Assembly: GCA_009778715.1 (NCBI GenBank)
Contig: WRFR01000001.1
Location: 3,383-67,382, forward strand
Length of the DNA: 64,000 nt
Source of the DNA: Coriobacteriia bacterium
Lineage (GTDB): Bacteria > Actinomycetota > Coriobacteriia > WRKU01 > WQUG01
Reading direction: 5' to 3'
Under the pieces are notes generated by a model. The model saw only the letters and a program-made list of their open reading frames with translations. It ran no database searches and was not told the origin of the DNA. Shown here one piece after another: positions 1-47,008 of the stretch (positions are counted from its first letter, which is position 1; the number at the start of each line of letters is the position of its first letter). A program made the translations under genes and the position numbers.

Positions 1-4
1 TACC

Positions 5-120
5 TGTCACGAAAAGGGGTGAAGCCAATACCAAAAAAGAGGGGTGGCGGAACTTTGTCCACCCTGCAAGAGGCGCGGTCCGGCAAGGCGGCCGAGGAGG
101 AGGGGGGACTTTGGCTCGAT
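5..120 (+). pseudogene. Chimeric remnant of the mgtA 5' end (leader end and first codons fused to codons ~127-150 of mgtA)
   Basis: nt 5-40 closely match the intact mgtA start region at 2629-2667 (tgtcacgaaa[a]ggggtgaagccaat.ccaaa.aaga). nt 48-108 match mgtA 3025-3085 (ggaactttgtccaccctgcaagag.cg.g.tccgg.aaggcggccgag). The frame then diverges (listed ORF 19-210 MKPIPKKRGGGTLSTLQEARSGKAAE...). The ATG equivalent is mutated to ATA. Confidence 0.5.
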
Positions 121-193
121 TTTGCGTTGAGCCGAGGCTTGCTCCCGCTTATAAATATTGACAGAGTCGTACAAGCCAAGGAGGTAAACGAGT

Positions 194-664
194 ATGAGTG
201 GAGTTTGTAGGAAATGCCAACAACCGACTGAGAACGCTTATATCTTTGGTGTGGTGAAAAAGCATATACAGTTTGAACCGAACCTCCCTCATACAACAAC
301 GATCACTCCTGTAGCGCTGGTGAAGATCTTCGCATGCGATAGCTGCGGATTTGGTAAAGCCAGGTCGATGGCAGAGAAGGAATATTTTCGGGCGAAGTCA
401 GGATCAAGCGTCGATTCGAGCGGTACGATCCCGGCAGAAGATATTATCTATCCTGAGAACAGCGGAGATATCGCTACCCAATCTTGGCAGAAAAACTCCC
501 GAGCGCTTTCCGGAAGCTCTCAGTATTATCGTTTGATACCTGAAAGCAGGCTTCGCAACGACAAGTACATCAAGTTCAAAAGGATATGGAATGGAAAAAA
601 GACCGGCTATATCCCTCTCAGAGAGTGGCTTGATAAGGTCGCCCCAACTGCCCCAGACGACTAG
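194..664 (+). CDS. Hypothetical protein with N-terminal CxxC...CxxC zinc-ribbon-like motif (156 aa)
   Basis: ORF preceded by a strong SD (caAGGAGGtaaacgagtATG). Contains CRKC...CDSC. Local GC is clearly below the backbone. No family recognised by eye. Confidence 0.45.
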   Translation: MSGVCRKCQQPTENAYIFGVVKKHIQFEPNLPHTTTITPVALVKIFACDSCGFGKARSMAEKEYFRAKSGSSVDSSGTIPAEDIIYPENSGDIATQSWQKNSRALSGSSQYYRLIPESRLRNDKYIKFKRIWNGKKTGYIPLREWLDKVAPTAPDD

Positions 665-739
665 CTACGGCGCAGGGCGCTGAACCGTATCGTTGCATGC
701 TTGTTTGTAAAAACCATTACAATATGTTATTCTTTTTGT

Positions 740-1783
740 ATGAAAGAGATTGTTACAAATATTGATATGCTTCGTGAAATTGCATTGGATCAGTATGGTT
801 ATGTTACTTTTGCTCAAGCTAGGGATGCCGGTGTTACGCAACCAGCGGTCGCAATGTTAACGCGCCGAGACAGACTGGATAAAGTTGCTCATGGGGTGTA
901 CCGCGTGCCTCAAGTACCGCCCACTCAACATGATCGGTATATGTTGGCGGTGTTATGGACGGGCGCGCCAGAGGCCTGCCTGAGCCACGATACTGCTCTT
1001 GAGGTTTACGAGGTAAGTGATATCAATCCGGCGAATATTCATGTTGCTGTTGCAAAACGGCGTCGCATAAACCGTGCGGGTGGAGAGGGCTATACGCTGC
1101 ATCATGCGGATCTGGCTCCGGAGCAGGTTACTTGGTGGGAGGGCATTCCAACCGTTAGACTGCCACTTGCGATTGCACAATGTATCGATGATGGTGTGCC
1201 TGCGTACCTCATTCGCCAGGCTTTAGAAAGGGCGCCACAAAAAGGTTTATTACTACCCGAAGAACAGATCAGCCTGATCGCACAGTTGGAAGCACGCAGC
1301 GGTAAAGCGGTTGAGGCGAAAAGTGATGTCGGAGGTGGTTGGTATAATAAGAACATGTCTATGGAACTTCAACAGAGAGCCCTTTCCCGTCCAAAGGATT
1401 TTGCTGATGCAGTGCGTCAGCTTGAGGCGGGTATGCCTGACTATGTTGTGATGGGCAATTTTCTGGATGAATTCTATCGTTTGCCACAATCAAAAAAGCA
1501 AGCTTCTCTTGATAAAGAACCGCCGGCATCCTCTGCACTTGAAAAGATGATGGCAGTAAACTATGCGGCTACTGCCGAAAAACTCGCACATGATTTTAAG
1601 CTGCAAGTTCCTGTATGGGTTAATAAGCCACGGTACTTTCTTGCTGAGGGTGAAGCGATATATGGGTATCGCCCGTACAAAGAGACGCGGGCTGACCTCG
1701 CAGAGATCCTTAGAGAAGAAGCGCCCGTCGAGTTCGCCCGGCGTAATCTTTTCGTTTCGGCTAATGCGCTAACAAGGGTCTAA
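740..1783 (+). CDS. AbiEi-like (type IV TA / abortive-infection antitoxin family) protein with ~180-aa extra C-terminal region
   Basis: The N-terminus (…REIALDQYGYVTFAQARDAGVTQPAVAMLTRRDRLDKVAHGVYRV…) matches the AbiEi wHTH pattern. It is followed by an AbiEi C-domain-like stretch (CLSHDTALEVYEV…VAVAKRRR…GIPTVRLPLAIAQCID). The listed ORF starts at TTG 701, and ATG 740 is the more plausible start. The stop overlaps or abuts the next gene (TAAgATG). Confidence 0.6.
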   Translation: MKEIVTNIDMLREIALDQYGYVTFAQARDAGVTQPAVAMLTRRDRLDKVAHGVYRVPQVPPTQHDRYMLAVLWTGAPEACLSHDTALEVYEVSDINPANIHVAVAKRRRINRAGGEGYTLHHADLAPEQVTWWEGIPTVRLPLAIAQCIDDGVPAYLIRQALERAPQKGLLLPEEQISLIAQLEARSGKAVEAKSDVGGGWYNKNMSMELQQRALSRPKDFADAVRQLEAGMPDYVVMGNFLDEFYRLPQSKKQASLDKEPPASSALEKMMAVNYAATAEKLAHDFKLQVPVWVNKPRYFLAEGEAIYGYRPYKETRADLAEILREEAPVEFARRNLFVSANALTRV

Positions 1784-1784
1784 G

Positions 1785-2345
1785 ATGAAAGAGGCATTTA
1801 CTCCGGAAGAGTTTCTTCAGCTTCTGTCGCAACTGTCAGTTTGCTTGGAGCACGAGGGGAAGAAGACCACCATTATCCTCTTTGGCGGCGGAGCGCTTTC
1901 TATGTACTATGGTGCGCGGTCCACGACTCATGATTTGGATGTATTGATTAATGGGGACGATCGCAGCAGCATTATTGAAGCCGTACGAAGAATTGCAGCG
2001 GATAATGACACGGTAGATGACTGGCTCAACGACGATGGCAAGAGTCTCATTACCGACGCGATAGTTGCTGATGCGCAAGATTTCATAACACTACCAGCAA
2101 TCACCATGAAAGTAGCATCCGCTGAAGCTCTGCTGGCCCTTAAGGCGGCAGCGCTCCGCTATCTCCCAGGTTCTCATGACCTGGAAGATGTGCGATTTCT
2201 GATCCAACGCCTGAAGGTTACGGATGTCGAAGAAGTCATCACGTTGGCGGAGAAATACCTGCCCCAAAGGCTTCTGCCGCTTTCTGCTTACAATGAAACA
2301 ATGCTGGATGTTTTGATTGAAGAGATCAACAAAGAGGGCAACTAA
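1785..2345 (+). CDS. Small nucleotidyltransferase, AbiEii/DUF1814-like N-terminal core (186 aa)
   Basis: Pol-beta-type NTase signature LFGGGALSMYYGARSTTHDLDVLI (GG[SG]x...R.T.D[LI]D). It sits immediately downstream of the AbiEi-like gene. It is shorter than canonical AbiEii (~250-300 aa). Confidence 0.55.
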   Translation: MKEAFTPEEFLQLLSQLSVCLEHEGKKTTIILFGGGALSMYYGARSTTHDLDVLINGDDRSSIIEAVRRIAADNDTVDDWLNDDGKSLITDAIVADAQDFITLPAITMKVASAEALLALKAAALRYLPGSHDLEDVRFLIQRLKVTDVEEVITLAEKYLPQRLLPLSAYNETMLDVLIEEINKEGN

Positions 2346-2642
2346 GAGGATAACTGATATTTCTTTTGCTGCTGGTGGGAGATACGTGTTATCGTGGTAA
2401 CGGTTTTTCGGGCGCTGCACTTGTGGCTGCGCTCTTCGCTCTCGACCTGAGGAGGTGACTTGCATGGACGCTGGACCTGCTGCTAAACAGACTGTTCGAT
2501 TGTGCTTGTGCGTAGTGCGCGCGAGTGACGTGTGTCCATGCCGCGCGCTCTAAGGTGAGATCCTTGCACTGAGCTGAAGTTCGTTCCGCTCTCTGCATTC
2601 CTGCGTTTCAAGCACCCCTGTACTTTTCATGTCACGAAAGGG

Positions 2643-5351
2643 GTGAAGCCAATGCCAAAGAAGAAGAATGCCGCGCTTGCCGGGGGCAATGTCAGCGCTG
2701 CTACGCGCGCGGCTCAGGAGCGTCTCATCGGGGGCGCGCAGATGACGACCGATCAGCTTTACGTCAAGTACAACGTAGCTGGTAGGTCCGGCCATGACAA
2801 CGCGGCCGCGGAAAGGGCGCGGGAGCGCTACGGGTCCAACGTGGTCGCGCGGGCCCACCGGTTCTCGCTGCTCAAGCAGCTTTTCAGCTCGTTTATCAAC
2901 CCGTTTACGGTCGTCTTGCTCGCCATCGCGATCGTCTCGTTTGTGACCGACTTCATACTTGCGGCGCCGGGCTCGAAGTCGTTGACGGAAGTCATCATCA
3001 TTGTGGTGTTGGTTACCATCAGCGGAACTTTGTCCACCCTGCAAGAGACGCGATCCGGTAAGGCGGCCGAGGCGCTCTCGGCCATGATCGAGACTACCAT
3101 CGCGGTCATGCGTAATTCAGACTCGGTCGAGCTGCCCATCGACCAGATCGTGGTCGGCGACGTGGTGCTGCTGGCCGCCGGTGACATGATCCCGGCCGAC
3201 ATGCGCGTGCTCCAGGCCAAGGATCTCTTCATCGGGCAGAGCTCGCTGACCGGCGAGTCAGAGCCAGTCGAGAAGTTCTCAGACTCGCTGGAGAAATCCA
3301 GCGCAAACCCGCTCGACGATAACAACCTTGTGTTCATGGGGAGCAACGTGGTTTCTGGTTCGGCCACCTGTATGGTGCTGGCGGTGGGCGGCGATACCTA
3401 CTTTGGCCAGATCGCCAAGACGGTGACGACCACCAAGACCAAGACCGGTTTTGAGGTCGGCGTCAACAAGGTCAGCTGGCTGCTGATCCGCTTCATGCTC
3501 GTGATGGTACCGATCGTGCTGTTTGTCAACGGCTTTACCAAGGGCGACTGGATGCAGGCGGTGCTGTTTGCGCTGTCGGTGGCCGTCGGCCTGACGCCGG
3601 AGATGCTGCCGATGATCGTGAGCGCCAACCTCGCGCGCGGCGCCGTGACGATGTCGCACAAGAAGGTCATCGTCAAGAACCTCGGCTCGATCCAGAACTT
3701 CGGCGGCATGGACTTTCTCTGCACGGACAAGACCGGCACGCTCACGCAGGACAAGATCACGTTGGAGTACTCGCTTGACGTTAACGGCAACCCGGACACG
3801 CGAGTGCTGCGCCACGGATTTTTGAACAGTTACTTCCAGACGGGGCTGCGCAACCTGCTTGACCAGGCGATCATCGATCACGGCCACGACGTCGATATCT
3901 CGCACTTGAAGGAAGAGTATCACAAGGTCGACGAGATCCCGTTTGACTTCCAGCGCCGGCGCATGTCGGTTGTGGTTGAAGACCAGAGTGGCAAGACCCA
4001 GATGATCACGAAGGGCGCTATCGAGGAGATGCTTGACTGTTCGGGCTACGTGGATCAGGGCGGCGGCAAGGTCGAGAAACTGACCGACGCGCTGCGCTCT
4101 CGTGTCATGACCACGGTCGAGAAGTACAACGCGCAGGGCATGCGCGTACTGGGCATCGCGCAGAAGACCAACCCGCGGCCAGCGGGGGAGTTCTCCGTGG
4201 CCGACGAGGCCGACATGGTGCTGATCGGCTATCTGGCGTTCCTGGATCCGCCCAAGGAGAGTTCCAAGGCGGCCATCGCGGCGCTCAGCGAGCACGGCGT
4301 AGGCATCAAGGTGCTGACCGGCGATAACGACGCCGTGACGCGCTCGGTCTGCTCGCAGTTGGGCATCGAGGTGTCGGGGCTGATGCTGGGGTCGCAAGTT
4401 GAGTCGATGAGCGACGACGAACTGAAGGCCGCGGTCGAGGGCGTGTCGGTGTTTGCCAAGCTCTCGCCAGCGCAGAAGCAGCGCATCGTGAGCGCGGTGC
4501 GCGCCAACGGGCACACCGTGGGCTACATGGGCGACGGCATCAACGACGCGTCTGCGATGAAGGCCTCCGACGTGGGAATCTCCGTGGACACGGCCGTTGA
4601 CATCGCCAAGGAATCAGCCAACATTATCCTGATGGAAAAGGACCTCATGGTGCTTGAGCAGGGTGTGGTGGAAGGCCGCAAGGTCTATGCCAACATCATC
4701 AAGTACATCAAGCTGACCTGCTCGTCGAACTTCGGCAACATGTTCTCTGTGCTGGCGGCAAGCATCTTCCTGCCATTTTTACCCTTGCTGCCGCTGCAGA
4801 TCCTTCTGCTGAATATGATCTACAACATCACCTGCACGTCATTCCCGTTTGATAACGTTGACGAGGAATTTCTGGCCAAGCCACGCAACTGGGACGCCTC
4901 GACGATATCTTCGTTCATGGCGTTCTTTGGGCCGACCAGCTCGGTGTTTGACATCACCACGTACTTGGTAGCGTTCTTCTGGCTGGCGCCGCTGGCCATG
5001 GGGGCCGGATATCACGCGCTGGGCGCCACGGGGCAGGCGGGCTTTATCGCGCAGTTCCACTCGATGTGGTTCATCGAGTCGCTGCTGACACAGACGATGG
5101 TGCTGCACACCCTGCGCACCGCGAAGATACCGTTCATCCAGAGCCGCGCGAGCCTGTCGCTGATCCTGTTCTCGATCGGCGGCATCCTGGTGGGCGGCGT
5201 ACTCCCGTATACGCCGCTGGCAGCGACGCTCGGTTTCGCCCGTCCGCCGCTGATCTTCTACGCGGTGCTGCTTGTGACGATCGTCGCGTACCTGATACTG
5301 GTGAGCGTGGTGAAGAAGTTCTACACCAAGCGCTATGGCGAGTTGTACTAG
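2643..5351 (+). CDS. mgtA: Mg2+-importing P-type ATPase MgtA
   Basis: 902 aa with the P-type ATPase motifs CTDKTGTLT (phosphorylation site) and GDGINDA. It has N- and C-terminal TM bundles. The listed start is GTG 2643. ATG 2652 with AAAGGGG upstream is the probable true start. The 5' UTR is about 300 nt. Confidence 0.9.
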   Translation: MKPMPKKKNAALAGGNVSAATRAAQERLIGGAQMTTDQLYVKYNVAGRSGHDNAAAERARERYGSNVVARAHRFSLLKQLFSSFINPFTVVLLAIAIVSFVTDFILAAPGSKSLTEVIIIVVLVTISGTLSTLQETRSGKAAEALSAMIETTIAVMRNSDSVELPIDQIVVGDVVLLAAGDMIPADMRVLQAKDLFIGQSSLTGESEPVEKFSDSLEKSSANPLDDNNLVFMGSNVVSGSATCMVLAVGGDTYFGQIAKTVTTTKTKTGFEVGVNKVSWLLIRFMLVMVPIVLFVNGFTKGDWMQAVLFALSVAVGLTPEMLPMIVSANLARGAVTMSHKKVIVKNLGSIQNFGGMDFLCTDKTGTLTQDKITLEYSLDVNGNPDTRVLRHGFLNSYFQTGLRNLLDQAIIDHGHDVDISHLKEEYHKVDEIPFDFQRRRMSVVVEDQSGKTQMITKGAIEEMLDCSGYVDQGGGKVEKLTDALRSRVMTTVEKYNAQGMRVLGIAQKTNPRPAGEFSVADEADMVLIGYLAFLDPPKESSKAAIAALSEHGVGIKVLTGDNDAVTRSVCSQLGIEVSGLMLGSQVESMSDDELKAAVEGVSVFAKLSPAQKQRIVSAVRANGHTVGYMGDGINDASAMKASDVGISVDTAVDIAKESANIILMEKDLMVLEQGVVEGRKVYANIIKYIKLTCSSNFGNMFSVLAASIFLPFLPLLPLQILLLNMIYNITCTSFPFDNVDEEFLAKPRNWDASTISSFMAFFGPTSSVFDITTYLVAFFWLAPLAMGAGYHALGATGQAGFIAQFHSMWFIESLLTQTMVLHTLRTAKIPFIQSRASLSLILFSIGGILVGGVLPYTPLAATLGFARPPLIFYAVLLVTIVAYLILVSVVKKFYTKRYGELY

Positions 5352-5378
5352 GCTCGGCCTCCTTCCGTCTGAGTTCGT

Positions 5379-5421
5379 TGCTGATGAGCTTACGTAGCGT
5401 TAGTACGCTACGCTCATCAGC
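5379..5421 (+). terminator. Stem-loop downstream of mgtA stop (10 bp + bulge + 6 bp stem), no clear U-tract
   Basis: gctgatgagcttacgtagcg-ttagta-cgctacgctcatcagc inverted repeat, 28 nt after the mgtA TAG. Confidence 0.3.
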
Positions 5422-5461
5422 GCCTGCTCAGACGAAATGATTCCGTCGCCTGATATCTGAT

Positions 5462-5491
5462 AGAATAATACTAGAATAAAGTTATTATTCT
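5462..5491 (+). promoter_or_regulatory. Palindromic operator-like site in AT-rich promoter region upstream of phd/parE
   Basis: AGAATAATA-ctagaataaagt-TATTATTCT inverted repeat. TAGAAT -10-like hexamers. Ends 12 nt before the phd ATG (SD GAGGAG). Confidence 0.4.
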
Positions 5492-5503
5492 GAGGAGATA
5501 AAG

Positions 5504-5773
5504 ATGTTGATCAAATCATCAACCGCTCTGCGCAGCGACTACAATGCTATATCGACTTTGGCGCAAGAGACGCAGGAACCTATCTATATCACCAAGAATG
5601 GCGAAGGTGATCTTGTGGTGATGAGCATAGAGGCGTTTGAGCTACGCGAAGAACTTGTTAAGCTGGAAGCCAGTTTGGAATATGCTGAACGGGCTCGCCA
5701 GCAAGGGGATGAAGGTTTCTCGATAGAGAATTCGCGCGCAAGCCTGGAAGTTATCTATGGAACCCAAGTTTGA
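5504..5773 (+). CDS. Phd/YefM-family type II antitoxin
   Basis: 89 aa. …EPIYITKNGEGDLVVMSIEAFE… is the characteristic Phd/YefM core. It overlaps the downstream toxin gene by 17 nt. Confidence 0.8.
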   Translation: MLIKSSTALRSDYNAISTLAQETQEPIYITKNGEGDLVVMSIEAFELREELVKLEASLEYAERARQQGDEGFSIENSRASLEVIYGTQV

Positions 5774-6086
5774 TCTCCGTATCCTGACATCCGCCCAGTA
5801 TGACCTGGAGAGGATCGCTCTGCTCCACTTCTCATACGTGGGACCAGAATCTGCGCGTAAGATAACGAATGCACTCTATGATGCAATGGAGCATCTGTGT
5901 CGGTTCCCGGATATGGGAGTTGTATTACCCGACAAGTCACTGCAATCTCTGGGTTATCGGGGGCTGATTGTAGGTCATTATCTTTGTGTATATCGCCACA
6001 TCGAGACAACGGTATTCGTTTACCGTGTATTTAATGCCCGCTCTGATTATCCGCAGTTATGGAGAACATTGCCTAAGGGGAAATGA
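5757..6086 (+). CDS. ParE/RelE-family type II toxin
   Basis: 109 aa basic protein with a RelE/ParE-like C-terminus (…GHYLCVYRHIETTVFVYRVFNARSDYPQ). Translationally coupled to phd. Confidence 0.75.
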   Translation: MEPKFDLRILTSAQYDLERIALLHFSYVGPESARKITNALYDAMEHLCRFPDMGVVLPDKSLQSLGYRGLIVGHYLCVYRHIETTVFVYRVFNARSDYPQLWRTLPKGK

Positions 6087-6101
6087 GTAAATGAGTAAAT
6101 T

Positions 6102-6168
6102 CTTTGCAAAGCTTGCTTGACATGGATTGCAAAGCTTACTATACTAAGAATGTAAAGCAGGCTTTGCA
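6102..6168 (+). promoter_or_regulatory. Near-consensus sigma-70-type promoter (TTGACA-17-TATACT) overlapped by three CTTTGCAAAG-type palindromic operator sites
   Basis: Perfect palindrome CTTTGCAAAG at 6102-6111. TTGACA at 6117-6122 and TATACT at 6140-6145. TTGCAAAGC repeated at 6127-6135. AAAGC-AG-GCTTT palindrome at 6155-6166. The site lies directly upstream of the XRE regulator gene. Confidence 0.5.
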
Positions 6169-6197
6169 TAGATAACGAAGGAACATCAATAGATATC

Positions 6198-6428
6198 GTG
6201 ATGAAGACACGGATCCAGGAGCTGCGTAAAGAGCGCAAGCTATCGCAGGAGGAACTGGCGACAGCGGTCGGCGTGACACGCCAGACGATCACGTCTCTTG
6301 AGACGGGGAAGTACACCGCTTCGCTCGTACTGGCTGCTAAGATCGCTCGCTATTTTGACCTGACGATCGAAGAGGTGTTTCTGATCGATACTGACGATAT
6401 GCCCGGAGCAGAGGCGGGCAGGAAATAG
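6198..6428 (+). CDS. XRE-family helix-turn-helix transcriptional regulator (76 aa)
   Basis: …LRKERKLSQEELATAVGVTRQTITSLETGKYTASLVLAAKIARYFDLTIEEVF is the canonical Cro/C1-type HTH_3. Confidence 0.8.
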   Translation: MMKTRIQELRKERKLSQEELATAVGVTRQTITSLETGKYTASLVLAAKIARYFDLTIEEVFLIDTDDMPGAEAGRK

Positions 6429-6440
6429 GGAGAGAACATC

Positions 6441-6950
6441 ATGGGAATGGCAGAGGGAGTACTTGCTTCCAGCACATTGAAATACAAACATCAAGTGAAA
6501 ATGCGCCTGGCTCTTATGATCGCCATGTTTATCTGGGGTGCGCTTGCGATCGTTATCTCATTCGTTGGTTCTAATGCAAAGACGGTCGCCTCACTGCAAG
6601 ATGCAGGAATTTCTGTTCATGTGCTCAGCGAGTCCATGCAAGGTTTCTATCGTGGATTCGGCGTCGGTTTTATGGGTGCTGCTGCGGTTTTTGTGATCAT
6701 TAACCTGTACTTGCTGATTAATAAAAAGGCGCAAGCGAATCGTCGTGTGCGTGATCTGGACGAACGCAATGTAGCGATCCAGCAACGGGCTACGTCGCTT
6801 ACTGCCGCGATCACGATCATTCTCGCTGCATTTGCCATAATAGTCGCTGGCGTATTTAACACTGCGGTAATGTTTACGTTGATCGCTGTAAACCTGATAA
6901 TGGGTGCAATCTATGGGTGTGCGTGGTTGATCTTGAGATCGCGCTCCTGA
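6441..6950 (+). CDS. Small 4-TM membrane protein (DUF2975/YoaS-like partner of XRE regulator)
   Basis: 169 aa with four hydrophobic helices. It is adjacent and co-oriented with the XRE gene, in the yozG/yoaS-type arrangement. Confidence 0.55.
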   Translation: MGMAEGVLASSTLKYKHQVKMRLALMIAMFIWGALAIVISFVGSNAKTVASLQDAGISVHVLSESMQGFYRGFGVGFMGAAAVFVIINLYLLINKKAQANRRVRDLDERNVAIQQRATSLTAAITIILAAFAIIVAGVFNTAVMFTLIAVNLIMGAIYGCAWLILRSRS

Positions 6951-6954
6951 TCAG

Positions 6955-6987
6955 GTGACAAAACTACCCCAGGGGTAACTCTGTCAG
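6955..6987. repeat. GTGACAAA…TGTCAG palindromic intergenic repeat, copy 1 (imperfect)
   Basis: aggtgacaaaactaccccaggggtaactctgtcag. It shares the aggtgacaaa…ccccagggg core with copy 2. Confidence 0.5.
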
Positions 6988-7048
6988 CGGATGACAAGAC
7001 GGCAGCAATGAGAGCGGGCGCAGGCCCGCTCTCGCTATACTGAAACGC

Positions 7049-7897
7049 ATGAAGAACAGGGATACATCACGCAATCGTGAGCCGATCGGGATATTTGATT
7101 CCGGGCTCGGAGGGCTCACGGTCATGCGCCAGATCGCCGATCTGCTCCCTGGTGAAAGCCTCATGTATCTGGGTGACACACTGCGCTGTCCCTATGGGCC
7201 GCGTCCGGCAGAAGAGGTGCGCGACTTCGCGCTGCAGGTCTGCCATTTCTTGCAGAATCAGGGTGTGAAGCTCATCGTTATCGCCTGCAATACGGCGACG
7301 GCGGTCGCTCTTGAGGCTGCGCAGGAGGAGTTCCCGGTTCCTATTATTGGGGTCATTGATCCCGGCGCGCGCGCGGCGGCACAGGCGACGCGCAATCGTC
7401 GCGTCGGCGTCATTGGCACGGAGGGCACGATCACTTCAGGCGCTTACGAGCGGGCTCTGCTGAGTAATGACGCAGGCCTGCAGGTGACCAGCGTGGCGAC
7501 GCCGGACTTTGTGCGCATCGTCGAGGAGGGCCTGAGCCATAATGGCGAAGGGGAGGTTTGGATCCCGGATGAGTTCTTCGACCTGGCGCACCGCCAACTC
7601 GACCCGCTCGTGGAAGCGGGAATCGACACGTTGGTGCTGGGTTGCACTCACTATCCGATACTTGCGCCCGCACTCCAGCGGGTAGTCGGCCCGGGAGTGA
7701 CGCTTATCAGCTCGGCCGAAGAGACCGCGCGCGAAGTAAAGGCAACGTTGGCGCGACGCGGCAACGCAGCGACATTTGGCCATGTCGTGTATTCATCCTG
7801 GCAGATGTTTACCACGGGCGACCCCGAGGTCTTCGCGCGGCTCGGCGCGCGTATCATGGACGATTCGCCGTTGCCTGTTTTGCCTGTCGATTTATAA
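7049..7897 (+). CDS. murI: Glutamate racemase
   Basis: IGIFDSGLGGLTV…CNTA…GCTHYP motifs. Confidence 0.9.
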   Translation: MKNRDTSRNREPIGIFDSGLGGLTVMRQIADLLPGESLMYLGDTLRCPYGPRPAEEVRDFALQVCHFLQNQGVKLIVIACNTATAVALEAAQEEFPVPIIGVIDPGARAAAQATRNRRVGVIGTEGTITSGAYERALLSNDAGLQVTSVATPDFVRIVEEGLSHNGEGEVWIPDEFFDLAHRQLDPLVEAGIDTLVLGCTHYPILAPALQRVVGPGVTLISSAEETAREVKATLARRGNAATFGHVVYSSWQMFTTGDPEVFARLGARIMDDSPLPVLPVDL

Positions 7898-7902
7898 TAG
7901 AG

Positions 7903-7931
7903 GTGACAAACACCCCAGGGGTGTTTGTCAC
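7903..7931. repeat. GTGACAAACACCCC-AGG-GGTGTTTGTCAC perfect palindromic repeat, copy 2
   Basis: 13-bp perfect arms. Sits between murI and rph. Confidence 0.6.
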
Positions 7932-7942
7932 AATAGGTGAGC

Positions 7943-7975
7943 GTGACAAAATGGTGCCTGTCCCCATTCTGTCAC
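7943..7975. repeat. GTGACAAAATGG…CCATTCTGTCAC palindromic repeat, copy 3
   Basis: 12-bp near-perfect arms with a 9-nt loop. Lies 11 nt after copy 2. Confidence 0.55.
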
Positions 7976-7996
7976 CACAGAAAGGAATATCTTTCA

Positions 7997-8719
7997 ATGA
8001 GTTCACGCAGTTATGATCGCACCGCCGACGCATTGCGTCCGGTTTCTATCGAGCGCAACGTCAGCAAGAACGCTTATGGTTCGGCGTTTATCCGCTGTGG
8101 CGACACGCACGTACTGTGTTCGGCCACGATCGAGGACAAAGTGCCAAGCTGGCGCAAGATGTCTGGTCAGGGCTGGGTGACCGCCGAGTACGCCATGCTT
8201 CCCACTGCGACAGGCGAGCGGACGCGCCGCGAGCGCAACGGCGCCAAAGGCCGCACACTTGAGATCGAGCGCCTGATCGCACGAAGCCTGCGCACGGTGA
8301 TCGATCTGGGCGGCCTGGGCGGCGAGGTCACGGTCACGGTCGACTGCGACGTGATCCAGGCCGACGGCGGCACGCGCACCGCTTCGATCACCGGCGCCTA
8401 TGTCGCGCTGCACGATGCGCTCCAGACCTGGAAGGAAGCCGGCATGATCTCAAGCATGCCGCTGACGGGACAAGTGGCGGCGATCAGTGTGGGCTTAGTC
8501 GACGGGGAAGCGCTGCTCGACCTTGACTACGAAGAGGACAGTCACGCTGAGGTTGACATGAACGTGGTCTGCGACGACCAGGGCAACTTCATCGAGCTCC
8601 AGGGCACAGGGGAGCGGGTCTCGTTCTCGCGCCACCAGCTCAACGGCTTCCTGAACCTGGCCGAGGCAGGCATCAAGGAACTGATGGCGATCCAGAAATC
8701 GGTGTTGGCCGGTGAGTGA
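7997..8719 (+). CDS. rph: Ribonuclease PH
   Basis: MSSRSYDRTADALRPVSIERNVSKNAYGSAFIRCGDTHVLC… The listed ORF starts at 7937. The internal ATG 7997 with aaAGGAat upstream matches the Rph N-terminus. Confidence 0.9.
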   Translation: MSSRSYDRTADALRPVSIERNVSKNAYGSAFIRCGDTHVLCSATIEDKVPSWRKMSGQGWVTAEYAMLPTATGERTRRERNGAKGRTLEIERLIARSLRTVIDLGGLGGEVTVTVDCDVIQADGGTRTASITGAYVALHDALQTWKEAGMISSMPLTGQVAAISVGLVDGEALLDLDYEEDSHAEVDMNVVCDDQGNFIELQGTGERVSFSRHQLNGFLNLAEAGIKELMAIQKSVLAGE

Positions 8720-9365
8720 CGCAAGGGGAGAGACGCCGACGATCGTCGTTGCGACTGGCAATGCACACAAGGTGGTCGAGATTGCCGCGGCATTGGGTGC
8801 TGCGGCAGACAGCCCACTGGCGGGGATAGGCTTCGATGCGGTCCATGAGCTCTACCCGGACTTCATTGATCCCGTTGAGGACGGAGCCACTTTTGAGGAC
8901 AACGCTGCCATCAAGGCGCACGCGGCGCACTATGTGTCGGGGTTACCTTCGCTGGCCGATGACTCCGGGCTTGTGGTCGATGCGCTGGATGGCGCGCCTG
9001 GCATCTACTCAGCGCGTTACTGTGGCGTCGAGCATGATGACGCGGGTAACAACGAGAAGCTCTTGCGGGAATTGGAGGGAGTGCCAGCGCAGCGGCGCCG
9101 CGCGCGCTTCGTCTCTTGTCTGGTTGTGGTGGGCCTGAACACGATCATAGATCGTCCAGGTTATGGCTACCTGACCGTGACGGGGACCTGTGAGGGTTCG
9201 ATCGGATTTGAGCCACAGGGCAATAATGGCTTTGGCTACGATCCGCTGTTTTTGCCGGACGCTACTCCGGGTCGCAGTATGGCTCAGCTCACTCTCGAAG
9301 AGAAGACGGCGATCTCACACCGCGGCGATGCGCTCCGCAAGCTGCTCGCCGTGTTACACTCGTAA
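8712..9365 (+). CDS. rdgB: Non-canonical purine NTP pyrophosphatase (RdgB/HAM1)
   Basis: TIVVATGNAHKVVEI…SGLVVDAL…GAPGIYSARY. Overlaps the rph stop. Confidence 0.85.
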   Translation: MSDARGETPTIVVATGNAHKVVEIAAALGAAADSPLAGIGFDAVHELYPDFIDPVEDGATFEDNAAIKAHAAHYVSGLPSLADDSGLVVDALDGAPGIYSARYCGVEHDDAGNNEKLLRELEGVPAQRRRARFVSCLVVVGLNTIIDRPGYGYLTVTGTCEGSIGFEPQGNNGFGYDPLFLPDATPGRSMAQLTLEEKTAISHRGDALRKLLAVLHS

Positions 9366-9379
9366 GCGTATTAAACGAT

Positions 9380-9485
9380 CGGGAGCTGCCAAAAGCGGCA
9401 GCTGAGAGGCGCGGGCTTACCGCGCGACCGAAACGACGGCGCCGGTAATGCGGCGCTTGCAGGGCTTCGCCCATCGTTTCCCCGA
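9380..9485 (+). ncRNA. Probable TPP (THI-box) riboswitch in thiT leader
   Basis: GGGAGCUGCC…GGCAGCUGAGAGG (conserved GCUGAGA) followed by …GCGCCGGUAAUGCGGCGC…GCAGGGC (CCGG-UAAUG-CCGG-like P5 and AGGG). It lies directly upstream of a ThiT-like gene and a thiamine pyrophosphokinase. The P1 pairing could not be resolved by eye. Confidence 0.55.
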
Positions 9486-9502
9486 AGAGATAAGGAGAAA
9501 CG

Positions 9503-10108
9503 ATGAGCGCTCGCAGCACTTCACTCAGAATCCACACCCTGGTCGAAGCAGGTCTCTGCATTGCGCTGTTCGCGGTACTGCAGTATCTCAATGTTCGCCT
9601 GCCGATCAATATCGCGGGGGGGACTATATCGTTTTCAATGGTGCCGATCGTGCTGTTTGCGTTGCTCTACGGCCCGGGCTGGGGCATGGTGGTCGGCGCG
9701 CTTTGCGGCCTGATCGACCTGATGCTGGAACCCTTTATCGTCAATGTCTTCCAGGTCTTTCTTGACTATCCACTGGCGTTTGCCTGTGTGGGGTTCTCTG
9801 GCCTGCTGGCGCCCCTTACGCGCCAGCTGTTGGCGCATGGCAAGAGGGCGCCGGCAGCGGCGTTCGCGTTCATCGCTACGCTGCTGGGGGTCTCCTGCCG
9901 CTTCGTCCCGCACTTCATCTCGGGTGTGATCTTCTTTGCGAGCAATGCGCCTAAAGGCCAGAACGTCTATCTTTATTCGGCGACCTACAACCTGAGCTAT
10001 CTGTTGCCAGCTGGATTTATCTGCGCGGTTATCTTGGCGGTTGTAGTACCAGTCATACTGCCGCTCCTGTCACAGCGCTACCAAGTCAAGGCAAACGCTA
10101 ATGTCTGA
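9503..10108 (+). CDS. thiT: Thiamine transporter ThiT (ECF S-component)
   Basis: 201-aa polytopic protein. …RFVPHFISGVIFFASNAPKGQNVYLYS resembles ThiT …HFIAGIIFWSQYAWKGW…AYS. SD AAGGAGAaacgATG. Confidence 0.7.
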   Translation: MSARSTSLRIHTLVEAGLCIALFAVLQYLNVRLPINIAGGTISFSMVPIVLFALLYGPGWGMVVGALCGLIDLMLEPFIVNVFQVFLDYPLAFACVGFSGLLAPLTRQLLAHGKRAPAAAFAFIATLLGVSCRFVPHFISGVIFFASNAPKGQNVYLYSATYNLSYLLPAGFICAVILAVVVPVILPLLSQRYQVKANANV

Positions 10109-10736
10109 GCCCCGTCAACAGAGCGCGCTTCTGGCCTGCGTGCTTGCAGGCGATACTGACCAGGAAGACCCGTGTGACTACGATCTCACGATCGCGGTCG
10201 ACGGAGGATTGGCGTGGTTTCGCGAGCGAGGGGTCGCTCCGGACTTGTTCCTGGGGGATGGGGACTCTGCCACGGAGGAAGACCAGGACTGGGCGCGCCA
10301 GCGGGGAACCGCATTCCAGTTGGTGTCTCCAGACAAAGACTACTCGGATTTTGACCTCGCGTTGGACGTCTGCGAGCAACGTGAAGCGACAACCGCTACG
10401 GTGATCGGAGCGATTGGGGGCCGACTTGACCAGCAGCTCGGTATCTTCGGATCACTGTTACGTCATCCTGCGCTTCAGACGACCGTGCGTGATACGCAGC
10501 AATTCATCACACCTGTCTTTGCCGGTCAAACCTATCAATGCGCAGAGCCCGTAACGACCTTCGGCGTCGTCGCGCTTGAGCCAGCCATCGTAACCGTGCG
10601 CAATGCCCGTTGGCCGCTTGACTCAGCGCGTCTTGAGCCGCTCAGCACCTGGGGCATCTCGAACGAACCACAGGGCGGGCAACCCCAGATTGTCGTTGAG
10701 ACAGGCGCCGCCCTTTTCATAGGGCAATACGCATAA
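10101..10736 (+). CDS. Thiamine pyrophosphokinase
   Basis: …LFLGDGDSATEE… (GDxDS) and AIGGRLDQQ (ALGGRxDH-like) motifs. Overlaps the thiT stop. Confidence 0.7.
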   Translation: MSEPRQQSALLACVLAGDTDQEDPCDYDLTIAVDGGLAWFRERGVAPDLFLGDGDSATEEDQDWARQRGTAFQLVSPDKDYSDFDLALDVCEQREATTATVIGAIGGRLDQQLGIFGSLLRHPALQTTVRDTQQFITPVFAGQTYQCAEPVTTFGVVALEPAIVTVRNARWPLDSARLEPLSTWGISNEPQGGQPQIVVETGAALFIGQYA

Positions 10737-10770
10737 AAAACGCCCGGTCGCACTGACCGGGCGTTTCGCT
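10737..10770. terminator. Bidirectional rho-independent terminator between thiN(+) and rpmB(-)
   Basis: aaaaACGCCCGGTCgcactgGACCGGGCGTttcgc: 11-bp GC-rich stem with A-run on one side and T-run on the other. Confidence 0.6.
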
Positions 10771-10807
10771 CTCCTCTAAAGCCAGAGGACGCGAGAGGGC
10801 GCCGTAA

Positions 10808-10999
10808 CTAATAGACCCGCTCTACTTTATCCGCTTTCAGGCACTTGGTGCAGACATTGATCTTCTGTACCTTGCCTTCGTGCAGAGCAGTGACTTTCTG
10901 GATATTGGGCTTGAAGGTCCGGTTAGTGACCCGATGCGAGTGGCTGATGTTGCGCCCCGCCGTGGGATGCTTCCCGCATATTGCGCAGACCTGTGACAT
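10808..10999 (-). CDS. rpmB: 50S ribosomal protein L28
   Basis: MSQVCAICGKHPTAGRNISHSHRVTNRTFKPNIQKV… SD AAGGAG 6 nt upstream of the start on the minus strand. Confidence 0.85.
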   Translation of the reverse strand: MSQVCAICGKHPTAGRNISHSHRVTNRTFKPNIQKVTALHEGKVQKINVCTKCLKADKVERVY

Positions 11000-11133
11000 A
11001 ATGAACTCCTTGATAGATTATATGGTTTGTTTGTTCGGGCGACTTTCCAGTCGCAAATAATCATGCTATCACAGCCCCGAACTGCTGACAAGCACGCCTC
11101 GCTTGCTTTATAATAACTGTTTGACTTCTGTCC

Positions 11134-11526
11134 GTGTCCGCAACCTTTGAAAGAGAGCAGATCATGCCTAATAACGTACCCGGTTTGATCCAGATATCGA
11201 ATGATGTCCTGGCCGATCTCTCGGGCTATTGTGCCCTTGAAGTGTATGGAGTGGTCGCTATGGCTGCGCCTACCTTAGTCGAAGGAGTGGTCCAACTGCT
11301 GCCTGCACAGAAACTGCGGCGCGGCGTGCGCATCACAACGATTGACCTTGACGGCGAGGGCATGACAGTTGTTGATGTGGACCTCTATGTCATCATCGAA
11401 TATGGCACTAACCTCGCTGAGGTCAGCAAGAACCTGGCAGAGCGCGTACGTTACGTGTTAACTTCCCAGGCATCGGTAACCGTGGGGCGTGTCGACGTTC
11501 ATGTTCTTGATGTGAAGGTTCGGTGA
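11134..11526 (+). CDS. Asp23/Gls24-family (alkaline shock) protein, YloU-like
   Basis: 130 aa. Its position upstream of the DAK2 protein matches yloU-yloV. Confidence 0.75.
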   Translation: MSATFEREQIMPNNVPGLIQISNDVLADLSGYCALEVYGVVAMAAPTLVEGVVQLLPAQKLRRGVRITTIDLDGEGMTVVDVDLYVIIEYGTNLAEVSKNLAERVRYVLTSQASVTVGRVDVHVLDVKVR

Positions 11527-13151: not shown

Positions 13152-13193
13152 CGTCAAAACAAGAGCGAGCGATACAGGGACAGGTAATAATCT

Positions 13194-14075
13194 ATGGGAA
13201 AGATCTTTGTAAAGAACGATATGGCGATCGTGACTGACGGTTGCGGTGATATCACTCTCGAGGAAGCGCGCGACCGTTCGATCTGTGTGCTGGAAACACA
13301 TATCACCCTGGGAGACGGCACCCTAACCGACTCCGAGCATTTTACCGCCCGGGATTTCTGGGATTCGCTCTTTGAGAATACCGAGGTACTGCCCAAGACC
13401 GCGCTGGTCACTCCGGGAAGATTTCTTGATTGCTACAAGCAGGCGGCAGAGGCAGGCGCAAAACATATTCTGGCAATCATCATGTCATCAGCGTTGTCAG
13501 GAGGTTATGACGCGGCTTGTCAGGCAGCGGAGCAGTCACCTGTGCCGACGACGGTCATCGATTCCCGTGCGGTGACACGCGGAACAGCCATACAGGTACT
13601 GGCTGCGGCAGACCTTCGTGACGCAGGGGTTCCTTTTGACGATATCGTGGCGCAGGTCACGGCTGTTCGCGATTCGATGCATATCGACTTTCTGGTCGAT
13701 AACCTTGAGTTTCTGGTACGGGGCGGTCGTGCAGGCAAATCGGCGCAAATGCTGGCGTCTGTGCTCAACATAAAGCCAGTATTGCGTGTCTTCGAGGACG
13801 GCAGTATCGATGCCTATAAGAAATGTCGGGGCACGAAAAAGGCGATGGCAGAACTTGCAAAGCGCGCCGTTGAAGACACGCCAGGCGAGGGATGGCACTA
13901 TTCCCTGGCTATTACCAGCAAGCCCGAACTTGAGGCGGTAGCCAACGAGGCTTTGGGGCACGCTGGATTCAAGGCGAGCTATGATGGTCCTTTCCAGGTG
14001 GGCATCATCGTTGGCATCTACTGCGGGCCGGGCACTGTTGCCGTACTGACCTATCGTCTTCCCTGCCTGCCGTAG
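13194..14075 (+). CDS. DegV-family fatty-acid-binding protein (FakB-like)
   Basis: 293 aa. …IIMSSALSGGYDAACQAA… matches the DegV SSxLSGTY motif. Confidence 0.75.
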   Translation: MGKIFVKNDMAIVTDGCGDITLEEARDRSICVLETHITLGDGTLTDSEHFTARDFWDSLFENTEVLPKTALVTPGRFLDCYKQAAEAGAKHILAIIMSSALSGGYDAACQAAEQSPVPTTVIDSRAVTRGTAIQVLAAADLRDAGVPFDDIVAQVTAVRDSMHIDFLVDNLEFLVRGGRAGKSAQMLASVLNIKPVLRVFEDGSIDAYKKCRGTKKAMAELAKRAVEDTPGEGWHYSLAITSKPELEAVANEALGHAGFKASYDGPFQVGIIVGIYCGPGTVAVLTYRLPCLP

Positions 14076-45892: not shown

Positions 45893-45969
<77 letters not shown>

Positions 45970-46058
45970 TTTTGGCGGCACTGAGCCGCCGTGACGAAAC
46001 CCTCAAGTAGGCAACTACGAATCGGCTTTCGTCACGACGCCTCAGCACTCGCCAAAAC
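45970..46058. repeat. Structured tRNA-adjacent element E1 with terminal inverted repeats TTTTGGCGG…CACTCGCCAAAAC
   Basis: ttttggcggcactgagccgcc-gtgacgaaa…tttcgtcac-…cactcgccaaaac has nested hairpins. It shares its ends with E2 at 49540-49645. Confidence 0.45.
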
Positions 46059-46107
46059 CAAGTTGATAGTCTTGGCATAATTTATCGGTGGGAGACGAGG
46101 AGCTATC

Positions 46108-46932: not shown

Positions 46933-47008
<76 letters not shown>

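Follow-up and report, generated by a model that had tools for sequence, protein, structure and literature searches.

Toxins of the MenT1/AbiEii type add nucleotides to tRNA 3′ ends and thereby block translation, and AbiEi combines a winged-helix autorepressor with an antitoxin domain. Foreign DNA flanked by direct repeats of a target gene that itself remains intact is the geometry of tRNA-gene islands. AbiE is a type IV toxin-antitoxin and abortive-infection system consisting of AbiEi (COG5340) and AbiEii (DUF1814) (Dy et al. 2014, PMC3985639), and AbiEi autoregulates via inverted repeats in its own promoter (PMC3985639). In the MenAT1 system of Mycobacterium tuberculosis, MenT1 (Rv0078A) is found with MenA1 (Xu et al. 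2023, PMC10435456; Cai et al. 2020, PMC7450476). Core defence hotspots are small accessory spots between conserved genes (Johnson et al. 2023, PMC10250203; Hochhauser et al. 2023, PMC10121019), and small toxin-antitoxin islets without mobile-element genes enter genomes by homologous recombination at flanking core genes and later erode (Belot et al. 2026, PMC13617665); the concept of integrase-free toxin-antitoxin islets at core genes is already published (PMC13617665).

We analysed a stretch of 64,000 nucleotides (the window) from an uncultured Coriobacteriia bacterium of the termite gut. Our reading, to which we assign a joint probability of about 70%, is that positions 1–2383 are the right-hand part of a hypervariable toxin-antitoxin/defence islet at a core-gene hotspot upstream of mgtA, and that this islet owes its structure to a partly duplicated mgtA 5′ region, to decay by deletion and to homologous recombination, with no integrase taking part. 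The hotspot is real and its kind is largely ordinary, with a few unusual details. As in the published islets and core hotspots, the content between the same flanking genes varies in close relatives. The islets are further matched by the exclusive toxin-antitoxin/defence content (MenT-like/AbiEi, MazEF, MNT, Phd/ParE, CBASS), by foreign composition without mobility genes, and by erosion, visible as a truncated cyclase, a decayed ORF1 (contig L003) and a fused ORF2. Unlike in the islets, the modules are separated by relics of the 5′ end and leader of the very core gene that flanks them, one relative (L164) has two relic copies, and the host belongs to an uncultured Coriobacteriia lineage instead of a well-sampled species. 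Tandem tRNA-gene islands resemble the locus in having foreign modules in series, each following an incomplete copy of the intact gene next to it; however, the repeats here are hundreds of nucleotides long, diverged and internally deleted, stem from the 5′ end of a protein-coding gene, and come without an integrase.

Results

The locus consists of the following features:

1–40, + strand: relic, start part; last ~20 nt of the leader, start-codon region and first ~9–11 codons of mgtA (blastn, alignment)
47–97, + strand: relic, 51-bp internal mgtA piece, ~codons 124–140 from the ATG at 2652 (48/51 identical to 3022–3072)
98–157, + strand: non-mgtA sequence accompanying the relic, common to L164 copy A up to 157 (L164 alignment)
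194–664, + strand: ORF1, 156 aa, real gene restricted to the Coriobacteriia lineage of the window
705–722, no strand: palindrome TTGTAA-N6-TTACAA, 18 nt upstream of ORF2
740–1783, + strand: ORF2, 347 aa, putative chimeric antitoxin (Pfam, PADLOC, homologue spans)
1785–2345, + strand: ORF3, 186 aa, small MenT1/AbiEii-like nucleotidyltransferase, presumed toxin
2384–2651, + strand: true mgtA leader, conserved in L003 (495–744), L083 (from 1234) and L164
2652–5351, + strand: intact mgtA, magnesium-translocating P-type ATPase, 899 aa from ATG 2652 (TIGR01524 and NF011702, each 1103 bits)
5504–6086, + strand: Phd/YefM-ParE pair of low G+C on the other side of mgtA (Pfam PhdYeFM 1e-12, ParE_toxin 5e-10)

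The three co-directional ORFs lie exactly where the first-pass annotation had placed them. Their G+C content is indeed well below that of the flank (49.2% for 1–2383 versus 60.0% for leader plus mgtA), but the earlier figure of about 62% for the backbone was too high, as the whole window has 56.7% (1-kb median 57.5%, sd 3.5). The GC3 values of ORF1, ORF2 and ORF3 (0.52, 0.43 and 0.52) are all below the 5th percentile (0.54) of the 46 long reading frames of the window (median 0.65), among which mgtA is a high outlier (0.85). Since nrdR, dut, def and rpsB sit in other kilobases of the window with 48% G+C, a low G+C content carries little weight by itself. The sequence enclosed by the two copies of the mgtA start proved both compositionally foreign, as had been claimed, and variable among relatives, with AbiEi and the nucleotidyltransferase missing in L003 and an empty site in L083.

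To the left, the locus could be followed on L001, an 80.6-kb ENA contig that extends 3,400 bp beyond the window and is 100% identical to it over the 10,664 nt compared (L001 3401–14064, window 1–10664). A CBASS operon with a truncated cyclase, E2 and NucC lies immediately left of the window, which bears out the earlier alternative that the region forms the right-hand end of a larger island; the island's left boundary falls beyond a contig end. Defence or toxin-antitoxin genes are thus found on both sides, the CBASS genes on the left and Phd/ParE on the right; the latter pair is part of the same variable neighbourhood, because it is absent from L003 and L083. As noted previously, no integrase or transposase is visible in the stretch, and the 5.8 kb between the L001 contig end and mgtA yielded no integrase, recombinase or transposase.

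All related loci lie on short contigs of metagenomes, most of which come from a single study. Among these close relatives, the locus exists in four states:

L083: empty site, with the leader directly preceded by the end of a second P-type ATPase gene
L003: decayed ORF1, leader, mgtA; without ORF2/3 and without Phd/ParE
L164/L165: relic A with the ORF1 C-terminus fused to it, then an MNT-like ORF, relic B, MazE/PemK and finally the true leader
Window: relic, ORF1, ORF2, ORF3, leader, mgtA

The three genes do not form the single cassette that had been proposed: ORF1 has a separate history (without ORF2/3 in L003, with other modules in L164), and ORF2 is a two-gene chimera. The junctions recur in independent assemblies, all 100% identical to the window sequence: L002 spans relic, ORF1 and ORF2, L172 the fusion point and ORF3, and L173 ORF3 and the leader. 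The anatomy of the locus, its homologies, the ORF2 fusion, the differences among relatives and the common origin of all relic copies are direct observations.

ORF1 is a genuine, independent, small conserved gene with restriction to one lineage. Its N-terminus carries a CxxC...CxxC motif, its Shine-Dalgarno sequence (AAGGAGG) is strong, and its dN/dS was 0.087 against the full-length L163 homologue, with values >1.5 in the other two frames. Only three matches were found in 5.8 billion proteins and none in Pfam, NCBIfam, PADLOC, PHROG and PDB; the AlphaFold2 model had a pLDDT of 48. Between the window and L003, where ORF1 lies upstream of mgtA, ORF1 is 97.5% identical and mgtA only 85.6%, indicating recent exchange at the locus.

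The homologues of ORF2 show that it is an in-frame fusion of a complete AbiEi and a ~140-aa partner protein. Residues 1 to ~194 (nt 740 to ~1321) correspond to a complete AbiEi (COG5340; Pfam AbiEi_4 2e-10; PADLOC AbiEi 1.7e-69 over residues 6–194), and residues ~211–347 (nt ~1370–1783) to the partner of ORF3-type toxins; nt 1339–1375 are the former 5′ UTR of the second gene, now read through. In a search of 1.84 billion representatives, homologues matched either residues 1–190 (~190-aa proteins) or 213–347 (~140-aa proteins), and none of the best 150 matches spanned both halves. The partner is encoded alone elsewhere, upstream of ORF3-type genes (135 aa in L166, 82% identity; 167 aa in L169, 45%), and the nearest annotated AbiEi, from M. 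branderi (57%, 189 aa), has a 316-aa AbiEii downstream of it. Searching PDB by sequence with ORF2 gave no match. The fusion may have arisen by a deletion that took out AbiEi's own AbiEii toxin and led to reading through the partner's 5′ UTR. It could be a functional innovation instead of an accident, or ORF2 could be inactive.

ORF3 begins one base past the ORF2 stop codon. It has a MenT1-like fold with the catalytic motif set of pol-beta-type nucleotidyltransferases intact (G-G...R...DxD, K...R, D), although it exceeds the Pfam AbiEii threshold over 66 residues only and its Foldseek matches were weak (E 0.03, TM 0.43–0.48). Homology suggests a MenT1/AbiEii-type nucleotidyltransferase toxin, for which the C-terminal half of ORF2 would be the cognate neutralising partner; toxicity, neutralisation and any role of the islet genes in phage defence are predicted from homology. 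The arrangement resembles AbiE in the full AbiEi (winged helix-turn-helix plus C-terminal domain) in the N-terminal 190 residues of ORF2, the adjacent nucleotidyltransferase and the promoter palindrome, a candidate AbiEi operator. It differs from AbiE in that AbiEi is not free-standing and carries an extra domain of 137 residues, in that the toxin has 186 aa versus ~250–320 aa for AbiEii, and in that the natural partner of ORF3-type toxins in other genomes is not an AbiEi. MenAT1 is similar in toxin size (189 aa for MenT1) and in its small upstream partner gene; unlike in MenAT1, the sequence identity of ORF3 to MenT1 is only 15–18%, and the partner (135–167 aa), fused to AbiEi in the window, has no similarity to the 68-aa MenA1.

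To the right, the true leader starts with the last bases of the ATPase gene that adjoins it in the empty-site relative. It contains a 29-codon Cys-rich upstream ORF (2464–2553) and a CACCCC/GGGGTG hairpin that covers the ribosome-binding site; an Rfam search with the leader gave no match. The ORF listing begins mgtA at GTG 2643, upstream of ATG 2652.

When window 1–2400 was compared with the rest of the window by blastn, 5–40 matched 2630–2664 (91.7%, E 4.6e-7) and 47–97 matched 3022–3072 (94.1%, E 2.7e-16), while all remaining matches had E ≥ 1.5. The similarity of the window start to mgtA is thus significant on formal alignment, and the repeats lie within a few bases of those first described, except that the internal match stops at 97 and not at 108. 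The mgtA 5′ region was indeed duplicated, but it was not disrupted, since mgtA is full length and has its leader. On L001 the copy runs from 3250/3255 to 3497 and comprises ~150 nt of leader, the start-codon region and the 51-bp piece; L001 3250–3440 is 82.9% identical to window 2480–2664 over 193 nt (E 1e-41). In the window, the relic reads ATA where true mgtA has ATG. The 51-bp piece encodes TLSTLQE(A/T)RSGKAAE and is joined in frame to the start piece, a junction that is also present in L164 copies A and B.

L164 1831–2134 corresponds to L001 3250–3557 (91.6%), and the L001 and L164 relics share 92% identity. They are 83–90% identical to true leaders within the same clade and only 63–64% to that of L083. 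Derived characters common to all relic copies include the CTACCTGTCACG insertion and TTAGGTTAGACTCC; because these and both deletion junctions are shared, all copies have one origin. The relic is no fresh insertion scar but an old module, ~8% diverged between two lineages; one relative has it twice, and the deletion junctions of both copies are the same. Every full copy of the leader is accompanied by the final bases of the upstream ATPase gene (ACGTGCTAAGG), which places the start of the duplicated unit within that gene.

Discussion

The islet may have formed in four steps. A segment that started in the 3′-terminal part of the upstream ATPase gene, crossed the leader and ended within mgtA would have been partly duplicated, or brought in by recombination with a close relative's DNA. 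The redundant left copy would then have lost codons ~10–123 and everything beyond ~codon 140, leaving leader, start and 51-bp piece as a relic. As this relic is still 83–97% identical to the true 5′ region, integrase-free RecA-type recombination is possible; between relic and true copy, or between relics of different strains, it would duplicate the relic and stack or swap modules. Simple decay does not explain why the upstream-ORF part of the relics, expected to be free to drift, is 94–99% identical to true copies, the 3′ leader part being 71–78% identical.

This pattern is expected from crossovers in the leader, and a possible, though rather doubtful, alternative is that the relic acts as a portable homology arm. 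Recombination of the relic with the true mgtA 5′ region would release relic and module as a circle, which would re-enter other genomes by a single Campbell-type homologous crossover in the leader, giving integrase-free tandem arrays in which each entry regenerates relic, module and intact mgtA. Indeed, the same relic with identical deletion junctions borders different modules (ORF1 plus ORF2/3 in the window, an ORF1 fragment plus MNT and MazEF in L164), the L164 array contains two relic copies, the ORF1 and mgtA identities between window and L003 diverge as described, and L166 offers a second case of a module between direct repeats (87 nt). However, true leaders show the same identity gradient (97 versus 85%; 84 versus 54%), so constraint or mutational bias can explain that of the relic. 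Moreover, the module borders against L003 and L164 (~700–715, 2384) differ from the relic borders, the relic occurs in two lineages only, and no circular form, within-strain empty/occupied polymorphism or transfer vehicle was seen.

It is unlikely that the relic was kept for a function, either as a regulatory leader placing the genes downstream under Mg2+-type control or for a micro-protein (mgtA start in frame with TLSTLQETRSGKAAE). The mini-ORF keeps its frame in both the window/L164-A copy and L164-B, the upstream-ORF stretch is nearly unchanged, and anti-SD/SD pairing is preserved; yet the relic of the window lineage lacks the upstream ORF start and Shine-Dalgarno sequence, because homology starts at AAACAGAC, and the ATA in place of ATG argues in the same direction. 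Copy B lacks nearly the entire leader and has an extra frame-shifting base after GTG, the L164 mini-ORF is fused to truncated ORF1 (P0003), the 3′ leader part differs by 22–29%, and a protein search with the mini-ORF gave no match.

Still less probable is a site-specific integrative element that targets the mgtA 5′ end and brings a replacement 5′ end, the repeats being attL and attR. Foreign DNA flanked by direct repeats of an intact target gene would fit such an element, but no integrase, recombinase or transposase is encoded in the 5.8 kb mentioned above, and the repeats (190–300 nt) are only 83–94% identical, with two internal deletions and no short exact core. Furthermore, the 154 nt of contig upstream of ORF1 in L003 contain another gene's 3′ end and no relic, non-repeat sequence borders the AbiEi/nucleotidyltransferase unit, and the 12-mer GTAACGGTTTTT, inverted at 709–720 and 2397–2408, lacks extended similarity.

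Finally, a metagenome assembly artefact joining two strain variants of the mgtA locus is hardly credible: all sequences are metagenomic and one sample (Ga0123357) has several locus variants (L003, L083, L165), but the relic, with its two large deletions and unique junctions, is no allele of the true region, 100% identical junctions are found in assemblies from Logan, ENA and JGI, which were produced by different programs (L002, L172, L173, L165), and an orthologous relic, 8% diverged, is present in the other lineage (L164).

The mgtA locus and its composition

The features discussed here lie in the window as follows.

5-40 and 47-97, relic: decayed second copy of the mgtA 5' region (leader, start, 51-bp internal piece), most of its leader part lying left of the window
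194-664, ORF1
740-1783, ORF2
1785-2345, ORF3
2384-2651, true leader of mgtA, with an upstream ORF at 2464-2553
2652-5351, mgtA
5504-6086, Phd/YefM-ParE pair, followed by an HTH_3 regulator and a DUF2178 membrane protein

ORF1 to ORF3 are co-directional, as the first-pass annotation had stated. mgtA itself is intact: it encodes 899 aa from the ATG at 2652 and has a full-length match to TIGR01524 / NF011702 (1103 bits; cut-offs 611 and 975). The nearest genome match of MgtA is in the termite-gut MAG 'Coriobacteriia bacterium Emb289P4bin29' (89% aa identity; contig L003), from a MAG set described in PMC7024585, and all further matches in 185,579 species genomes are at or below 61% and, outside this small clade, mostly in Firmicutes. 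The GC3 of mgtA is 0.85, far over the window backbone (median 0.65, 95th percentile 0.74); the gene may itself be an old horizontal acquisition.

The G+C content was 49.2% for window 1-2383, 60.0% for the leader with mgtA, and 56.7% for the whole window, so the figure of about 62% initially given for the backbone has to be corrected. Since kilobases of 48% G+C elsewhere in the window hold the housekeeping genes nrdR, dut, def and rpsB, bulk G+C alone is no proof of foreign origin, and we used GC3 instead. The values for ORF1, ORF2 and ORF3 were 0.52, 0.43 and 0.52, below the 5th percentile of the long reading frames of the window (median 0.65). The foreign origin initially read from low G+C finds its support in GC3 more than in bulk composition.

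A decayed second copy of the mgtA 5' region

When window 1-2400 was compared with the rest of the window by blastn, positions 47-97 matched 3022-3072 (48/51 identical, E 2.7e-16) and positions 5-40 matched 2630-2664 (91.7%, E 4.6e-7), with no other significant match. The duplicated start and internal segments reported for mgtA are therefore significant on formal alignment, and they could be extended leftward with L001, an 80.6-kb ENA contig that we located by exact-protein look-up of ORF1. L001 begins 3,400 bp left of the window, and its positions 3401-14064 correspond to window 1-10664 (100% identical over the 10,664 nt compared). Since L001 3250/3255-3440 matches window 2480-2664 (82.9% over 193 nt, E 1e-41), the relic includes about 150 nt of leader in addition to the start region and the 51-bp internal piece. 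A tblastn search of the 6 kb upstream for MgtA fragments returned only the two known pieces, the window contains no copy of the ATPase gene that neighbours mgtA in the related contig L083, and a protein search with the relic mini-ORF gave zero matches. In the relic of the window, ATA stands where the true gene has ATG, and the start codon and Shine-Dalgarno sequence of the upstream ORF are absent, indicating decay. The mgtA 5' region was thus duplicated, one of the two possibilities originally offered, and not disrupted, as the gene is full-length.

Two further relic copies (A and B) are present in the related contig L164. The relic copies all carry derived characters absent from true leaders (among them the CTACCTGTCACG insertion, TTAGGTTAGACTCC and TGTCCCCCC), and both deletion junctions and about 20 nt past the 51-bp piece are common to all of them, so all copies have one origin. 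By its leader-core identities, the relic comes from an mgtA locus of the same clade and is older than the split of the window and L164 lineages.

Table. Identity of the leader core between relic and true copies.
Compared copies; identity
Relic of L001 vs relic A of L164; 92%
Relics vs true copies of the window/L003 clade; 83-90%
Relics vs L083; 63-64%
True copy of the window vs true copy of L003; 90%

Every full leader copy also includes the terminal bases of the ATPase gene upstream (ACGTGCTAAGG), so the duplicated unit started inside that gene. Identity between relics and true copies changes along the leader: it is 94-99% in the 67-nt upstream-ORF stretch (L001 3255-3321 and L164 1836-1902 vs window 2485-2551) and 71-78% in the following ~100 nt (Fisher p ~1e-4). 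The high identity of the upstream-ORF stretch holds even in relics that have no start codon for this ORF, and the same gradient appears among true copies. It could stem from constraint, gene conversion or crossovers.

Variable content upstream of mgtA in related genomes

The related contigs share the leader and mgtA and differ in what surrounds them.

Table. Order of features at the mgtA locus.
Contig; order
L083 (empty site); second P-type ATPase gene, ending (...RRRQTC*) right at the leader; mgtA; 99-aa membrane ORF; HTH; DUF2178
L003; 3' end of an unrelated gene; ORF1 (first 199 nt 97.5% identical to the window, beyond that internally deleted and frame-shifted); 53-nt remnant of the sequence that follows the MNT-like gene in L164 (92.6% identical); leader; mgtA (85.6%); ORF2/3 and Phd/ParE absent
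L164/L165; membrane ORF (minus strand); decayed ATPase-gene end; full leader with upstream ORF; relic A, fused to ORF1 codons 54 to end (database protein P0003); MNT-like ORF; relic B, keeping the last ~30 nt of the leader, the start and the 51-bp piece; MazE/PemK; beginning of the true leader
Window; CBASS; relic (leader cut on the left); ORF1; ORF2; ORF3; leader; mgtA; Phd/ParE; HTH

These differing contents show that ORF1 has a history apart from that of the ORF2/3 pair and that both sides of mgtA vary. A single three-gene cassette, as first proposed, is therefore wrong, L003 having ORF1 without ORF2/3. The wider claim that this DNA was horizontally acquired or built by recombination is borne out by the low GC3 and by the content that differs among relatives upstream of the same mgtA.

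The alternative that the region is the right end of a larger island also holds, as seen in L001, where a CBASS operon lies left of the relic (1-3200: C-terminal half of the cyclase, E2 protein, NucC-type nuclease and two membrane ORFs). The cyclase matches PADLOC profile positions 196-355 of 375, with the N-terminal ~195 residues absent; it is cut short at the contig end, where three GGGGAATTCC repeats may mark the terminus of an inserted mobile element at which the assembly also breaks off. To the right of mgtA, window 5352-6950 is a second low-G+C stretch; in L003 and L083, the 99-aa membrane ORF stands in place of the Phd/ParE pair. Further along the window (45893-49539), housekeeping genes surround four tRNA genes (Pro-TGG, Gly-TCC, Arg-TCT, His-GTG), and the ORFs sampled next to them included no integrase or island.

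ORF1 is a real gene with signs of recent exchange

ORF1 had no match in Pfam, NCBIfam, PADLOC, PHROGs or PDB sequences, only three database relatives, and an AlphaFold2 model with a pLDDT of 48. Compared with its full-length homologue in contig L163 (76% nucleotide identity), its dN/dS was 0.087 in frame and >1.5 in the other two frames; this pattern marks ORF1 as a real gene. Its 5' part (window 189-392 vs L003 155-358) is 97.5% identical, compared with 85.6% for the adjacent mgtA (dS 0.57), indicating that the window and L003 lineages exchanged this segment recently. The L163 homologue (1333-2038), the only full-length one outside the mgtA locus, stands alone behind a formamidase gene. The fragment after it matches phage family phrog_15286 (2e-21), a hint that ORF1 travels with phage-related DNA.

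ORF2 is an AbiEi fused to the partner of a MenT1-like nucleotidyltransferase

Residues 6-194 of ORF2 matched the PADLOC AbiEi profile PDLC02228 (1.7e-69, profile positions 25-202 of 216), and Pfam AbiEi_4 was also matched (2e-10, 41 bits, cut-off 25); by these profiles, the N-terminal 194 residues constitute a complete AbiEi. The closest annotated AbiEi, from Mycobacterium branderi (57% identity), is a stand-alone protein of 189 aa followed by a 316-aa AbiEii. With ORF2 as query, HMMER gave 2,741 matches when run exhaustively against 1.84 billion representatives. Each of the best 150 of these covers either ~1-190 (proteins of ~190 aa) or 213-347 (137-184 aa), and none of the best 150 spans both halves. 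PDB chains gave no match to the ORF2 sequence at E ≤ 1, though the PDB holds MenA1 (8an5).

Elsewhere, the partner family (that of the C-terminal half of ORF2) is a separate gene directly upstream of ORF3 homologues: the free-standing protein has 135 aa in L166/L167/L168 (82% identical to ORF2 residues 215-347) and 167 aa in L169 (45%). Since nucleotide homology between L166 and the window begins at window 1339, 37 nt ahead of the partner's own ATG in L166, the ORF2 frame continues past AbiEi, across what was once a 5' UTR, into the partner gene. This read-through is the signature of a deletion that took out the AbiEii gene. ORF2 may work as a chimeric antitoxin, in which the AbiEi repressor/antitoxin is coupled to the neutralising partner of a MenT1-like toxin.

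Residues 99-164 of ORF3 clear the Pfam AbiEii cut-off, and DUF6036 was narrowly missed. A word-indexed search of 5.8 billion proteins found only two non-self relatives; the catalytic residues G34-G36, R45, D50, D52, K120, R125 and D135 are invariant, and the dN/dS is 0.034. The AlphaFold2 model is confident (pLDDT 89), and the predicted fold is that of a compact MenT1-type nucleotidyltransferase. Toxins of the MenT type attach nucleotides to the acceptor ends of tRNAs (PMC7450476, PMC10435456).

The pair matches neither AbiE nor MenAT1 in full. Of the features defining AbiE (Dy et al. 2014; PMC3985639), the AbiEi antitoxin component is present in ORF2. However, AbiE antitoxins are free-standing proteins of ~190-290 aa with the DUF1814 toxin directly after them, whereas ORF2 has 347 aa, of which residues 211-347 belong to another family. 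The DUF1814/AbiEii toxin of AbiE has motifs I-IV (hG[GS]x15DhD with Arg, K...R, Asp). In MenAT1, a 68-aa MenA1-type antitoxin lies upstream, while the partner here has 135-167 aa when free-standing.

In L166, two direct repeats of 87 nt (582-668 and 1789-1875, 87% identical) that resemble a gene 3' end (...VYDGEVLSDRRNRLESEAGDEE*) enclose the free-standing partner and nucleotidyltransferase pair (76% nucleotide identity to window 1339-2323), a second instance of a module bracketed by gene-end repeats. HicB is found on its left, and on its right what we take from the translated sequence to be the start of an IS transposase gene. A scan of viral contigs with ORF1, the partner domain and ORF3 revealed no relatives. 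The 12-mer GTAACGGTTTTT had three matches (0.12 expected), at 709-720 (minus strand, one mismatch), 2397-2408 (plus) and 17340-17351 (plus), and two copies, inverted to each other, mark both borders of the AbiEi/nucleotidyltransferase unit. As no similarity extends around the copies, we dropped it as a recombination site. Promoter and terminator scans of window 1-2700 showed no excess of sites over shuffled sequence.

Formation of the locus

The locus resembles published toxin-antitoxin islets, which have no mobility genes, integrate through homologous recombination in the core genes beside them and later erode (PMC13617665), as well as core defence hotspots (PMC10250203, PMC10121019), and by analogy we assign it to these. 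The same leader and mgtA have differing upstream content in L003, L164 and the window, with an empty state in L083. Toxin-antitoxin and defence genes dominate the content (AbiEi, a MenT-like nucleotidyltransferase, MazE/PemK, MNT-like, Phd/ParE, and CBASS cyclase/E2/NucC), and the GC3 of ORF1 to ORF3 is 0.43-0.52 compared with a backbone median of 0.65. This kind of feature is already known, and current understanding is not overturned; what stands out is that a relic of the core gene recurs as a boundary of modules, that AbiEi is fused to the partner, and that the MenT1-like toxin has a partner from a new family. The latter two offer a testable variant for nucleotidyltransferase toxin-antitoxin families.

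We propose that the locus arose when the segment reaching from the 3' end of the ATPase gene across the leader into mgtA was partly duplicated, either in tandem or by additive recombination with the DNA of a close relative. Two deletions would then have left the relic. In the interval between it and the true copy, toxin-antitoxin and defence modules would have come and gone, and deletions would have fused modules. Homologous recombination of the relic with the true 5' region or with another relic could copy the relic, as in L164, and swap modules. The locus would be a small, clean example of a toxin-antitoxin/defence hotspot built and remodelled without mobile-element machinery, illustrating how a flanking core gene is partly duplicated and decays by deletion and how genes of adjacent modules fuse, with reuse of leftover homology as recombination substrate as a further possible step.

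A stronger version of this last step is that the relic is a reusable homology arm, by which modules excise, move between strains and stack in tandem upstream of mgtA via RecA-type single crossovers. The locus would then be a cassette array that works without an integrase and uses a pseudogene fragment of the adjacent core gene as its 'attachment site'. We consider it possible but rather improbable; if true, it would provide a simple general route for accreting defence genes beside core genes and a warning to annotators that gene fragments at the edges of islands carry information. A site-specific integrative element is unlikely, because the DNA from the L001 contig end to mgtA contains no integrase or recombinase gene, and because the repeats are long, 83-94% identical and internally deleted, unlike the short exact att/attC sites of such an element or of an integron-like array. 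An assembly artefact is unlikely as well, since the junctions recur at 100% identity in separate Logan, ENA and JGI assemblies (L002, L172, L173, L165) and a diverged orthologue of the relic exists.

The leader of mgtA

A scan of the whole window at Rfam gathering thresholds returned 4 tRNAs only, and an E-value scan of 2300-2720 only a chance snoRNA match, so no known Mg2+ riboswitch or leader family is present at mgtA. The fold energy of the leader is unexceptional (z -1.1), and a hairpin at ~2613-2645 pairs CACCCC with GGGGTG over the mgtA ribosome-binding site. The upstream ORF (MDAGPAAKQTVRLCLCVVRASDVCPCRAL), of 29 codons and Cys-rich, stands behind a Shine-Dalgarno sequence. It is kept in L003, L083 and L164, the differences being synonymous changes and an indel of 3 nt that preserves the frame. 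Among 162 mgtA loci, this leader is present only in this Coriobacteriia clade; it may be a new leader-peptide attenuator.
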